Origin: Escherichia phage vB_EcoM_Kelasse
Direction: 5' to 3' (one strand)
Length of the DNA stretch: 64,000 bases
Sequence record: MW749001.1
Positions 32,930 to 33,944 of this stretch are shown here, piece by piece. The position numbers and the translations under genes were made by a program. Below the pieces are notes generated by a model, which searched no databases, was not told the DNA's origin, and was given only the letters and a program-made list of their open reading frames with translations. Numbering within the stretch: the stretch's first letter is position 1; every line of letters starts with the position of its first letter.

Positions 32930-33005
32930 TGGTCGAGGCAGTAGGGATCGAACCTACGACCTAGGACTTAGAAGGTCCTTGCTCTTCCTTCTGAGCTATG
33001 CCCCG
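32930..33005 (-). tRNA. tRNA-Arg (anticodon UCU)
   Basis: Hand-folded cloverleaf: 7-bp acceptor stem, T-arm GGTTCGATCC, anticodon loop CUUCUAA, CCA encoded. Confidence 0.8.
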
Positions 33006-33009
33006 TAAT

Positions 33010-33085
33010 TGGGGTGACCGATGGGAGTCGAACCCATGACTACGAGAATCACAATCTCGAGTTCTACCAACTGAACTACGGCCAC
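33010..33085 (-). tRNA. tRNA-His (anticodon GUG)
   Basis: Cloverleaf with anticodon loop UUGUGAU, T-loop TTCGACT, discriminator C as expected for tRNA-His. Confidence 0.7.
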
Positions 33086-33199
33086 ATTAATACCTACTCC
33101 AACAATCAAGATGTCTTCACACGAAATTAAGAGAAGAGTGATCAGTTCAACCCTTATAATCGCGTCAAGTAGATATTAATGTGACAGTTGTCACAAATT

Positions 33200-33274
33200 T
33201 GGCGGACGTGATAGGATTCGAACCTATAACCAATCGCTTAACAGGCGATCGCTCTGCCATTGAGCTACACATCC
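33200..33274 (-). tRNA. tRNA-Asn (anticodon GUU)
   Basis: Perfect anticodon stem ATCGC/GCGAT with loop CUGUUAA; T-arm ATAGGTTCGAATCCTAT. Confidence 0.75.
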
Positions 33275-33278
33275 AAAT

Positions 33279-33365
33279 TGGTGGGGAGTGATGGAGTCGA
33301 ACCACCCGAGTCGCAATGACAATGAATTTACAGTCCACACCGCTACCTCTACGGGATAACTCCCC
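33279..33365 (-). tRNA. tRNA-Tyr (anticodon GUA), long variable arm
   Basis: 87-nt cloverleaf; loop CUGUAAA; variable arm GTCATTGCGAC resembles E. coli tRNA-Tyr; anticodon stem has two G-U pairs. Confidence 0.6.
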
Positions 33366-33371
33366 TTAATT

Positions 33372-33446
33372 TGGTGGCCCTGGGTGGAATTGAACCACCA
33401 TCTGGCGATTATGAGTCGCTTGCTTGAACCTTCCAGCTACAGGGCC
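33372..33446 (-). tRNA. tRNA with anticodon CAU (Ile2-type or Met)
   Basis: Cloverleaf with loop CUCAUAA; 7-bp acceptor GGCCCTG/CAGGGCC. Confidence 0.7.
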
Positions 33447-33447
33447 T

Positions 33448-33523
33448 TGGTGCTGATTGACGGAATCGAACCGCCGACATCCTCATTACAAGTGAGGTGC
33501 TCTACCTACTGAGCTAAATCAGC
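33448..33523 (-). tRNA. tRNA-Thr (anticodon UGU)
   Basis: Cloverleaf with loop CUUGUAA; T-arm GGCGGTTCGATTCCGTC. Confidence 0.8.
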
Positions 33524-33528
33524 AAAAC

Positions 33529-33618
33529 TGGCGGAGGCGATAGGATTTGAACCTATGAGTCGCCGGAGCGACTGCCGGTTTTCAAGACCGGTGCATTAAA
33601 CCACTCTGCCACGCCTCC
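33529..33618 (-). tRNA. tRNA-Ser (anticodon UGA), long variable arm
   Basis: 90-nt type II cloverleaf; anticodon stem CCGGT/ACCGG, loop CUUGAAA. Confidence 0.8.
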
Positions 33619-33620
33619 AG

Positions 33621-33694
33621 TCTCCATACAAGGATTTGAACCTTGGACCTCCTGATCCCAAATCAGGCGCTCTACCAAACTGAGCTACACGGAG
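33621..33694 (-). tRNA. tRNA-Pro (anticodon UGG), CCA not encoded
   Basis: Loop UUUGGGA; only 2 nt separate its 3' end from tRNA-Ser, as in the T4 Pro-Ser dimeric precursor. Confidence 0.8.
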
Positions 33695-33704
33695 TAAATT
33701 AAAT

Positions 33705-33778
33705 TGGAGCGGATAATGAGAATCGAACTCACATCATCAGATTGGAAGTCTGAGGTAATGCCATTATACGATATCCGC
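33705..33778 (-). tRNA. tRNA-Gly (anticodon UCC)
   Basis: Cloverleaf with loop CUUCCAA, anticodon stem TCAGA/TCTGA. Confidence 0.8.
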
Positions 33779-33783
33779 AAATT

Positions 33784-33870
33784 TGGTGCGAGAAGTGGGA
33801 CTCGAACCCACAAGGAAATCATTCCGCAGCATTTTAAGTGCTGTGCCTTTACCAATTTGACCATTCTCGC
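33784..33870 (-). tRNA. tRNA-Leu (anticodon UAA), long variable arm
   Basis: 87 nt; loop CUUAAAA; GCGAGAAUGGUCAAAUUGGUAAAGG... matches T4 tRNA-Leu as I recall it. Confidence 0.85.
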
Positions 33871-33871
33871 G

Positions 33872-33944
33872 CTGGGAATAAAGGACTCGAACCTTTGCAT
33901 CTAGCAGTCAAAGTGCTATGCCTTACCAACTTGGCTAATTCCCA
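33872..33944 (-). tRNA. tRNA-Gln (anticodon UUG), CCA not encoded
   Basis: Perfect 7-bp acceptor stem TGGGAAT/ATTCCCA; loop CUUUGAC; abuts tRNA-Leu as in the T4 Gln-Leu precursor. Confidence 0.8.

Follow-up and report, generated by a model that had tools for sequence, protein, structure and literature searches.

The 64,000-nt window of Escherichia phage vB_EcoM_Kelasse (MW749001.1) analysed here spans the entire tRNA cluster of the phage. ARAGORN identified exactly 11 tRNA genes in the window, all located on the minus strand between positions 32930 and 33944, and ten of the 11 were also called by the Rfam model RF00005 at its gathering threshold (score of 29), with 59–75 bits and E-values ranging from 1e-10 to 1e-14. 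In order of transcription, the cluster starts with tRNA-Gln (UUG; 33871–33944; 66 bits in Rfam) and tRNA-Leu (UAA; 33784–33870), both of which are T4 alleles, and continues with tRNA-Gly (UCC; 33705–33778), tRNA-Pro (UGG; 33620–33694), for which CCA is not encoded, tRNA-Ser (UGA; 33529–33618) and tRNA-Thr (UGU; 33448–33523). The T-loops of tRNA-Gly and tRNA-Thr contain the SegB motif RAWTSGAAC. The remaining genes are a tRNA-CAU of the Ile2 type (Ile2/Met; 33372–33446), tRNA-Tyr (GUA; 33279–33365), tRNA-Asn (GUU; 33200–33274; 74.1 bits), tRNA-His (GUG; 33010–33085; 65.1 bits) and tRNA-Arg (UCU; 32930–33005). CCA is encoded in the Tyr, Asn and His genes. This gene content, anticodons included, agrees with the initial annotation, which had been made by hand folding, and so does the lack of a tRNA-Asp: neither tRNA-Asp nor tRNA-Lys was found by ARAGORN anywhere in the 64-kb window.

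The gene not reported by RF00005 at the gathering threshold is that for tRNA-Tyr, a type II tRNA; in a permissive Rfam search its best match within the clan was tRNA-Sec, at 29.9 bits and below the threshold of that family (47). Charging of the E. coli TyrRS type depends on A73, the G1-C72 pair, a long variable arm and the GUA anticodon, and all these identity features can be read from the phage gene. Likewise, tRNA-Asn displays G73 and GUU, the features of a tRNA-Asn chargeable in E. coli, along with a C31-G39 pair.

The array has the hallmarks of a T-even tRNA operon, being encoded on the minus strand between trna.2-4/ipI and rnaD/rnaC/e.8 and sharing its Gln through Thr alleles with the T4 region (BLAST). 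Downstream of tRNA-Arg lie, on the same strand, a 116-aa ORF (phrog_3355; 32561–32911) and homologues of the T4 stable RNAs rnaD (species 2) and rnaC (species 1) at ~32300–32561, which are 93.6% identical to positions 2826–3169 of the T4 region (L001). A terminator-like hairpin (GCCCCGAC...GUUGGGGC followed by a U run; 32213–32252, minus strand) is found after rnaC and constitutes one copy of a 40-nt direct repeat. A scan of positions 32700–34300 identified no terminators and about as many promoter-like sites as expected (four versus 4.2), leaving a promoter in the Asn-His spacer unsupported. Searches of Pfam and PHROGs with the four ORFs flanking the cluster assigned every one of them to unknown function.

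The segB cassette of T4 and the distribution of the tRNA genes

The T4 region, with its eight tRNA genes, segB, rnaC and rnaD, has flanks that are syntenic with those of Kelasse and 93–95% identical to them; the two phages share the alleles of all genes from Gln through Thr, and rnaD and rnaC are likewise found downstream. Eight of the Kelasse genes had been equated with the classical T4 set, which is correct for the anticodons but not for the alleles of Ile(CAU) and Arg(UCU): these are shared with T2 and RB18 and are unrelated to those of T4. Genes for the tRNAs of Tyr, Asn and His are missing from reference T4, as had been supposed, but the sequence separating T4 Ile from Arg is the GIY-YIG homing endonuclease gene segB rather than the small ORFs expected there. 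Homology to T4 is lost within the Ile(CAU) gene at ~33427 and regained at rnaD/rnaC. Over this interval BLAST sets the ~845-bp Ile-segB-Arg segment of T4 against ~866 bp of Ile'-Tyr-Asn-leader-His-Arg'-ORF116 in Kelasse; the 116-aa ORF, which belongs to the same variable cassette, is missing in T4.

The T4 tRNA-Ile gene ends in GGGTCA, with CCA missing. Because the same Ile allele in T6 reads on through CCAAATTAA into tRNA-Tyr, a deletion in T4 is indicated. SegB cleaves tRNA T-loop sequences, with its preferred site lying inside the T2L gene for tRNA-Asn, and its homing excludes or replaces a ~1250-bp Met-Tyr-Asn-Arg region (PMC2330249). The Kelasse tRNA-Asn is 100% identical to the tRNA-Asn of T2, the bearer of this preferred homing site. 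The lack of Tyr, Asn and His in T4 is therefore best read as their loss to the segB cassette that occupies their place. On this view the eight-tRNA set of T4 is no reference state but one that a homing endonuclease has reduced.

In a set of 50,697 phage records, tRNA-Tyr is present in 637, tRNA-Asn in 351, the His module in 367 and the Gln-Leu-Gly block in 519. Coverage of the 1301-nt region reaches 80% or more in 250 records. The clusters of the Tequatrovirus phages T2/T2L, RB1, RB3, RB18, RB51/RB14, wV7 and HP3 resemble that of Kelasse in genes and gene order, and the 116-aa ORF follows downstream in them as well. Over the Tyr-Asn-leader-His-Arg segment (521 nt), RB18 is 99.6% identical to Kelasse. 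The relatives do, however, differ in detail: RB18 and RB51 are devoid of tRNA-Pro, T2 of tRNA-Thr and tRNA-His, and RB51 carries another Asn allele and no His. Neither a homing-endonuclease gene nor a replacement ORF interrupts the Kelasse cluster, which accounts for the presence of all 11 tRNAs. Annotated tRNAs include Tyr and Asn in T2, Tyr only in T6 and all three in RB18, while the RB51 record (FJ839693) lists Tyr and Asn with the note 'conserved in RB14'; the genes of T2L, RB1 and RB3 were described in 2008 (PMC2330249). Thus, the three genes are already known, long-annotated members of the cluster in hundreds of genomes, and it is T4 that is the odd one out. The initial annotation regarded them as a single, coherent gain. 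This view is contradicted by their occurrence as Tyr alone in T6, Tyr and Asn in T2 and all three in RB18 and by the unequal record counts; the three genes are separate modules.

tRNA-Tyr and tRNA-Asn in relation to tRNA-cleaving nucleases

The Kelasse tRNA-Tyr is 100% identical to the annotated tRNA-Tyr of T2 and only one nucleotide apart from that of T6 (U in Kelasse, C in T6, within the T-stem), which is found at the same position after Ile. The T5 tRNA-Tyr is identical to it over 32 nt of the variable and T arms, whereas the 5' half differs. Such tRNAs are known to act against immunity: the PtuAB nucleases of retron-Eco7 and Septu cleave host tRNA-Tyr in the variable loop and are neutralised by the tRNA-Tyr of T5 and T6 (PMC11555353, PMC12673091, PMC13096335), and inhibition of retron-Eco7 requires the variable loop of the T5-like tRNA-Tyr (PMC12673091). 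Infection in the presence of Septu EcB88, which cleaves tRNA-Tyr, is rescued by over-expression of the T6 tRNA-Tyr or by amplification of its gene (Chihara et al. 2026, PMC13096335). In the same study, T6 tRNA-Tyr was detected by northern blot, T6 deleted for the tRNA-rich region was more sensitive to Septu, and T4, lacking a gene for tRNA-Tyr, could not escape Septu EcB88; the T6 tRNA-Tyr was itself cut by Septu, a single gene copy giving only partial protection, and the resistance of T2 to Septu was not ascribed to its tRNA (PMC13096335). Judging by its near-identity to the T6 tRNA and its T5-type variable arm, the Kelasse tRNA-Tyr is a candidate anti-PtuAB tRNA. The tandem amplification of tRNA-Tyr that SegB drives at the T6 locus would be unavailable to Kelasse in cis, as there is no adjoining segB.

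[quoted passage not shown] The Kelasse tRNA-Asn reads U36-A-A-G39-C40-G41 where that of E. coli reads U-A-A-U-C-C; U39 of the U36-A-A-U39 motif is replaced, a change that may be analogous to the one in the tRNA-Lys mutant Mut1. G39, in place of the E. coli U39, is shared with the tRNA-Asn of T5, the rest of which differs throughout; the Asn allele of RB51 has U39. The T5-family tRNAs directed against PARIS and retron-Eco7 comprise Tyr, Lys, Thr and Asn (PMC11464382, PMC12409363, PMC11555353, PMC12673091), Lys being the one without a counterpart in Kelasse. Since no variant of tRNA-Lys, the primary target, is encoded, a resistant tRNA-Asn alone should not defeat PARIS. The involvement of phage tRNA-Tyr in counter-defence and of tRNA-Asn in PARIS was established by papers of 2024–2026, and the present genes carry little weight as a discovery in this respect.

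A different kind of nuclease had been suggested by the shared G34-U35, and the Tyr, Asn and His tRNAs all indeed carry Y33-G34-U35. Ogawa et al. are said to have reported in 1999 that the substrates of colicin E5 are the tRNAs for Tyr, His, Asn and Asp. Three of these four are encoded in Kelasse; Asp is missing, and the anticodon loops (CUGUAAA, CUGUUAA and UUGUGAU for Tyr, Asn and His, respectively) are the same as those of E. coli, with none of the loop changes that would block cleavage. With loops equal to those of the host, nothing hints at their evading an E5-type nuclease. Furthermore, the demonstrated nucleases act at the tRNA-Tyr variable loop and at anticodon-stem position 40/41, not at G34-U35 (PMC13096335, PMC12673091, PMC12409363), and no phage-defence system of E5-type specificity was named in the literature searched. 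The proposed counter to a colicin-E5-type nuclease thus finds no support, and the link through the 'GUN family' is most likely coincidental. In more general terms, a role of phage tRNAs against tRNA-cleaving immunity has been established for the tRNA-Tyr of T5 and T6.

tRNA-His and its structured leader

A G at position −1 is needed by bacterial HisRS, a near-universal rule of tRNA-His identity. The Kelasse tRNA-His has the expected C73 but T at −1, where E. coli hisR has G, and so does not encode the G−1 of an E. coli-chargeable tRNA-His. The T is kept in all Tevenvirinae homologues examined and is likewise found in T5 and a mycobacteriophage, and compensatory changes keep the stems of the tRNA intact. 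The possibility that the first G of the gene serves as G−1 was rejected, as the 3' end would then become C73-CCC-A instead of C73-CCA. Genes for tRNA-His devoid of G−1 occur in many phage tRNA clusters: in a sample from IMG/VR, G−1 is missing in 14 of the 23 cluster-borne tRNA-His genes and in none of the 26 host-like ones.

The spacer between tRNA-Asn and tRNA-His in Kelasse is 114 bp long. An unannotated 95-nt structured leader (33086–33180, minus strand) ends within it at position −1 of tRNA-His; it consists of a 14-bp closing helix with internal hairpins and has a minimum free energy of −33 kcal/mol (z −4.55). The leader is present in 355 records from several Tevenvirinae genera, and its structure is backed by covariation. 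The sequence diversity was drawn from GenBank phage records, exact-pattern scans of IMG/VR having returned only 4–5 close relatives; a permissive Rfam search of the region left the leader unmatched. Between tRNA-Asn and the leader lies a short linker (33181–33199, minus strand) that contains most of a 6-bp hairpin (UGUGAC/GUCACA) confined to the Tequatrovirus version. As the last base of this hairpin, 33180, also belongs to the leader, the linker hairpin and the leader represent alternative pairings. Homology of the spacer to T4 rnaC/rnaD was considered and ruled out: none was detected, and the rnaD/rnaC homologues lie further downstream.

The His gene and the leader travel together as a module that is common to other genera. 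The literature searched contained no defence system specifically aimed at tRNA-His and no report specific to phage tRNA-His without G−1; His products are only minor among those of AriB cleavage (PMC12409363). Neither codon supply nor a known defence explains the tRNA-His. That the leader and tRNA-His form a mobile Tevenvirinae RNA module other than a plain decoding gene, with unconventional maturation or charging or with a function as decoy or regulator, seems to us quite unlikely, but a phage tRNA-His lacking G−1 and preceded by a conserved leader does touch on the near-universal identity rule.

Probable accessory tRNAs in a mosaic cluster

The Tyr, Asn and His tRNAs are very probably ordinary accessory tRNAs of Tequatrovirus, residing in a homing-endonuclease-free mosaic cluster of which T4 has a segB-reduced form, and contributing to tRNA supply and, in the case of Tyr, to counter-defence. 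The 11-gene array would be the form of the cluster free of homing endonucleases; in relatives, genes for endonucleases of the SegB type, or else other ORFs, stand in for single tRNA genes, and in T4 the segB cassette takes the place of the segment from Ile' to ORF116. We envisage transcription of the genes as part of the cluster, processing of the transcripts by host RNase P and nucleases, and aminoacylation by the synthetases of the host, so that the pools of heavily used tRNAs are enlarged. By analogy with the near-identical T6 gene and the T5-type genes, the extra tRNA-Tyr may sustain translation when PtuAB cuts the host tRNA-Tyr. More tentatively, tRNA-Asn might buffer AriB of PARIS in a similar manner, given that it has G39 and not the U needed by AriB. 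tRNA-His would have entered separately, on a mobile module that includes the structured leader.

It is unlikely that the extra tRNAs merely fit an AT-rich, Tyr- and Asn-rich codon demand and play no part in defence evasion. Codon usage of the ORFs in the window was compared with that of a 50-kb E. coli sample. Tyr codons amount to 46.3 per 1000 in the phage versus 26.0 in E. coli (1.8-fold) and Asn codons to 59.3 versus 37.6 (1.6-fold; 66.1 in the plus-strand structural genes), ratios close to those of CAA and CCA, codons read by classical T4 tRNAs. The codon-supply adaptation proposed initially fits Tyr and Asn but not His, codons for which number 16.2 versus 26.0 per 1000 (0.6-fold, and 0.5-fold in plus-strand genes). 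Supply alone would also leave unexplained why no tRNA-Lys is encoded at a Lys demand 1.6 times that of the host. Moreover, E. coli has one isoacceptor type each for Tyr, Asn and His, which removes a rare-codon rationale, and the phenotypes of the T6 and T5 tRNA-Tyr depend on a defence system.

We consider it improbable that the content of the cassette is mainly a by-product of gene conversion by homing endonucleases and of T-even recombination, with little selection on each gene. In its favour are the T-loop cleavage and replacement of neighbouring tRNA genes by SegB (PMC2330249), the substitution of homing-endonuclease genes or ORFs for Pro in RB18 and RB51, Thr in T2, Asn/His in T6 and Tyr-Asn-His in T4 and AV119, and the swapping of Ile, Arg and Asn alleles as blocks. 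Yet the tRNA sequences are highly conserved, with 316 of the 351 Asn copies being at least 99% identical, the stems of tRNA-His are preserved by compensatory changes, and defence-dependent phenotypes are known for Tyr.

Finally, a joint gain of Tyr, Asn and His as a queuosine-family counter to an E5-type nuclease cutting between positions 34 and 35 is highly improbable: the common Y33-G34-U35 and the low chance that three isotypes drawn at random from the 12 outside the T4 set all belong to the four-member queuosine family (4/220 = 1.8%, post hoc) have to be set against the separate inheritance of the genes (also in RB51, with Tyr and Asn), the independent horizontal sharing of the His module, the missing tRNA-Asp and the host-identical loops, which would make the phage tRNAs substrates too. 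Related phages of Klebsiella and Enterobacter do possess all four of Tyr, Asn, Asp and His, which would fit such a gain, albeit amid many other tRNAs.

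The tRNA array and the exchanged segment

ARAGORN, run over the whole 64-kb window, called 11 tRNA genes on the minus strand (32930–33944) with the anticodons Gln-UUG, Leu-UAA, Gly-UCC, Pro-UGG, Ser-UGA, Thr-UGU, CAU, Tyr-GUA, Asn-GUU, His-GUG and Arg-UCU, and no tRNA-Asp in the window, bearing out the initial annotation on these points. Ten of them were also called by the Rfam tRNA model at its curated threshold (59–75 bits); the exception was tRNA-Tyr, whose best clan match in a permissive search was tRNA-Sec (29.9 bits, below that family's threshold). Reading of the sequence showed the tRNA-Tyr gene to be type II, with G1-C72, A73 and a long variable arm, and the tRNA-Asn and tRNA-His genes to carry G73 and C73, respectively; CCA is encoded in all three. 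The reality of the array, far above chance, is confirmed.

The phage is T4-like, and the flanks of the array are 93–95% identical to T4 (BLAST). In T4, segB, a gene for a GIY-YIG homing endonuclease, lies between tRNA-Ile and tRNA-Arg, and tRNA-Arg precedes the stable RNAs rnaD and rnaC. Tyr, Asn and His are indeed absent from reference T4, where the interval reads Ile-segB-Arg; the 'small ORFs' given for this position in the initial annotation were only approximately right, the actual occupant being segB. Homology between T4 and the window ends ∼20 nt into tRNA-Ile (∼33427) and restarts at the beginning of rnaD (32561). The non-homologous T4 segment (∼845 bp, Ile-segB-Arg) has as its counterpart ∼866 bp with the order Ile'-Tyr-Asn-leader-His-Arg'-ORF116, where primes denote T2/RB18-type alleles, the leader is an element 5' of tRNA-His and ORF116 encodes 116 aa. 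The window tRNA-Ile(CAU) (33372–33446) and tRNA-Arg(UCU) (32930–33005) cannot be aligned with the T4 alleles except over ∼20 nt at the start of Ile; they are identical or near-identical to those of T2 and RB18. Therefore, the proposed match of eight genes to the classical T4 set holds at the level of anticodons but not of genes. The entire Ile-to-Arg segment is an exchanged cassette.

The T4 tRNA-Ile has the 3' end ...GGGTCA, after which the segB leader begins, whereas the same allele in T6 runs on as CCA-AATTAA into tRNA-Tyr, as in T2 and the window. The T4 arrangement therefore looks like the product of a deletion or replacement, and the supposed gain of tRNAs is mostly a loss on the side of T4.

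Distribution and separate inheritance of the three genes

We searched 50,697 GenBank phage records. The 1301-nt region matched 956 records, 250 of them with at least 80% of the region covered, and the Gln-Leu-Gly block, used as a marker of the cluster, matched 519. tRNA-Tyr was found in 637 records (495 at ≥95% identity), the window allele of tRNA-Asn in 351 (all at ≥95%) and the leader plus His in 367 (201 at ≥95%). The gene order is Gln, Leu, Gly, Pro, Ser, Ile', Tyr, Asn, Arg' in T2 and Gln, Leu, Gly, Thr, Ile, Tyr, segB, Arg in T6; RB18 contains Tyr, Asn, His and Arg', with Pro replaced by segB, Tyr-GUA and Asn-GUU carry the annotation 'conserved in RB14' in the record of RB51, and AV119 has a T4-like arrangement. 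Each relative has between one and three tRNA genes replaced by a homing endonuclease gene or other ORF, the genes affected differing from one relative to the next, and the endonuclease-free array of 11 genes in the window is the most complete form of the cluster.

The essentials of the tRNA finding are all published or annotated already. Genes for the Met/Ile, Tyr, Asn and Arg tRNAs were described in T2L, RB1 and RB3 by Brok-Volchanskaya et al. [quoted passage not shown] The window tRNA-Asn is 100% identical to that of T2 and carries the SegB motif RAWTSGAAC in its T-loop.

A single coherent gain of 'GUN' tRNAs, as originally envisaged, does not agree with these distributions. T6 has Tyr without Asn or His; T2 and RB51 have Tyr and Asn, the latter in RB51 being a different allele; and His is confined to a smaller subset of relatives. 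Together with ∼95 nt upstream, the His gene forms one unit, which recurs at 82–92% identity between tRNA-Gln and tRNA-Ser in Karamvirus, Jiaodavirus and Gelderlandvirus phages and, more diverged, in Winklervirus (again between Gln and Ser) and Moonvirus. These other genera resemble the window in the His unit only; modules have been exchanged horizontally, and no 'GUN' set was acquired in a single step. Karamvirus and Gelderlandvirus appear to share a further conserved stretch of ∼110 nt, situated between tRNA-Gln and the His leader (L010, Enterobacter phage vB_Ecl_id4496, ∼1390–1500; locus L014, ∼490–600).

Counter-defence and codon supply

The suggestion that the additional tRNAs counter tRNA-cleaving immunity is partly right in spirit, such a role having been published for tRNA-Tyr. 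E. coli tRNA-Tyr has in its variable loop the cut site of retron-Eco7 PtuAB, which T5-family tRNA-Tyr counteracts in a manner requiring its own variable loop (PMC11555353, PMC12673091). Septu EcB88, likewise a PtuAB system, cuts tRNA-Tyr at C48/A49, and infection is restored by over-expression of T6 tRNA-Tyr or by SegB-driven tandem amplification of the T6 Tyr-segB unit; sensitivity is higher in a T6 mutant that is missing the tRNA-rich region, T4, without the Tyr gene, does not escape, and T2 is resistant, although this resistance was not ascribed to its tRNA (PMC13096335). The window tRNA-Tyr is that of T2, differs from that of T6 by one T-stem base and has 32 consecutive nucleotides (variable arm and T arm) in common with that of T5.

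For tRNA-Asn the relevant system is PARIS. Its nuclease AriB cleaves tRNA-Lys(UUU) and Thr(UGU) and, less strongly, Asn(GUU), and minor products come from His(GUG) and Pro(UGG); cleavage of tRNA-Lys is lost when U39 is changed, and T5 Lys, Thr and Asn jointly inhibit the system (PMC12409363). The window tRNA-Asn reads U36-A-A-G39-C-G and that of E. coli U-A-A-U39-C-C; by analogy, G39 is suggestive of a role in escape from AriB. PARIS should not fall to this tRNA-Asn alone, since the window, which covers the whole tRNA cluster of the phage, contains no tRNA-Lys. Two tRNA-Asn alleles occur in Tequatrovirus: that of the window and T2 (33200–33274), with G39, and that of RB51 (L012, 1683–1757), where U36-A-A-U39-C-A is the exact AriB cleavage motif. 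No defence system directed mainly at tRNA-His was found in the literature searched.

Codon supply, the other explanation proposed, fits two of the three genes. Per 1000 codons, 98 window ORFs compared with 42 E. coli genes contain 46.3 versus 26.0 Tyr codons (1.8×), 59.3 versus 37.6 Asn codons (1.6×; 66.1 in plus-strand structural genes), 63.2 versus 53.8 Asp codons (1.2×) and 16.2 versus 26.0 His codons (0.6×). A contribution of supply is therefore reasonable in the case of Tyr and Asn, though not of His.

The specific mechanism of the initial annotation, protection against colicin-E5-type anticodon nucleases, is unsupported: these enzymes recognize Y-G/Q-U-N, and the phage anticodon loops (CUGUAAA, CUGUUAA and UUGUGAU for Tyr, Asn and His) equal their E. 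coli counterparts and so should be cut equally, while the shared queuosine family, for which the post hoc chance expectation is 4/220 if three isotypes are drawn from the 12 absent in the T4 set, is most likely a numerological coincidence, and the link loses yet more weight because the three genes are inherited independently.

tRNA-His, its leader and downstream elements

The nucleotide at position −1 of tRNA-His is T, not the bacterial G (...GGTATTAAT followed by GTGGCCG..., junction at 33085/33086), with C73 kept; E. coli hisR has G at −1. T at this position was also present in every Tevenvirinae homologue examined, in T5 (L008), in mycobacteriophage Melpomini (L024) and at loci L028, L038, L074 and L136. 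Among 49 tRNA-His(GUG) genes retrieved from IMG/VR by a 5'-half pattern, G(−1) was found in 26/26 at loci with 1–3 tRNAs (host-like or prophage-border), while at loci with ≥4 tRNAs (phage clusters) 14/23 had T (9 distinct sequences) and 9/23 had G. Of the six T(−1) loci beyond the T-even-like group, five have His beginning exactly 1 nt past the preceding tRNA, and the sixth (L028) has an 81-nt gap. Since the stems are kept intact by compensatory changes and C73 is conserved, the gene is under tRNA-like selection. We found no report of a phage tRNA-His without G(−1) in the searchable literature.

The 95-nt leader (33086–33180, minus strand), located between an Asn-proximal hairpin and tRNA-His, ends exactly at position −1, and its first nucleotide pairs with U(−1). 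Its fold is closed, with an MFE of −33 kcal/mol and z = −4.55; it occurs in 355 phage records, in practically none of them as an annotated feature, and had no Rfam match in a permissive search. In a nine-sequence alignment from five Tevenvirinae genera, the 14-bp closing helix showed 99% pairing and three compensatory pairs, overall pairing reached 95.4% of cells versus 38–50% in slid controls, and the covariation score was attained by 0/500 shuffles. The interior hairpin is swapped for another in Melville and one IMG/VR contig; in Moon and Virsaitis27 the interior is wholly different, with the closing helix retained. One possibility is that the leader is an additional stable RNA of the cluster, comparable to T4 species 1 and 2; another is that it acts in processing.

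ORF116 (32561–32911, minus strand; phrog_3355), directly after tRNA-Arg, is part of the T2-type cassette and absent from T4; it had no Pfam match, and the Pfam/PHROGs search assigned no function. Homologues of rnaD (species 2) and rnaC (species 1), 93.6% identical to T4, lie at ∼32300–32561 (minus strand), on the 3' side of this cassette ORF and not next to tRNA-Arg, which they follow in T4. In L010 (1903–1997) a 95-nt 'tRNA-Met' called by ARAGORN resembles by eye the 3' two-thirds of T4 rnaC, a likeness which suggests that species 1 RNA is tRNA-like and that other genera carry homologues of its gene. An insertion of 555 bp, carrying a 157-aa ORF not present in T4 (31702–32175, phrog_2280, assigned no function), is bracketed by a 40-nt direct repeat (31658–31697 and 32213–32252, 90% identical) within which the tRNA/rnaC unit has its terminator hairpin.
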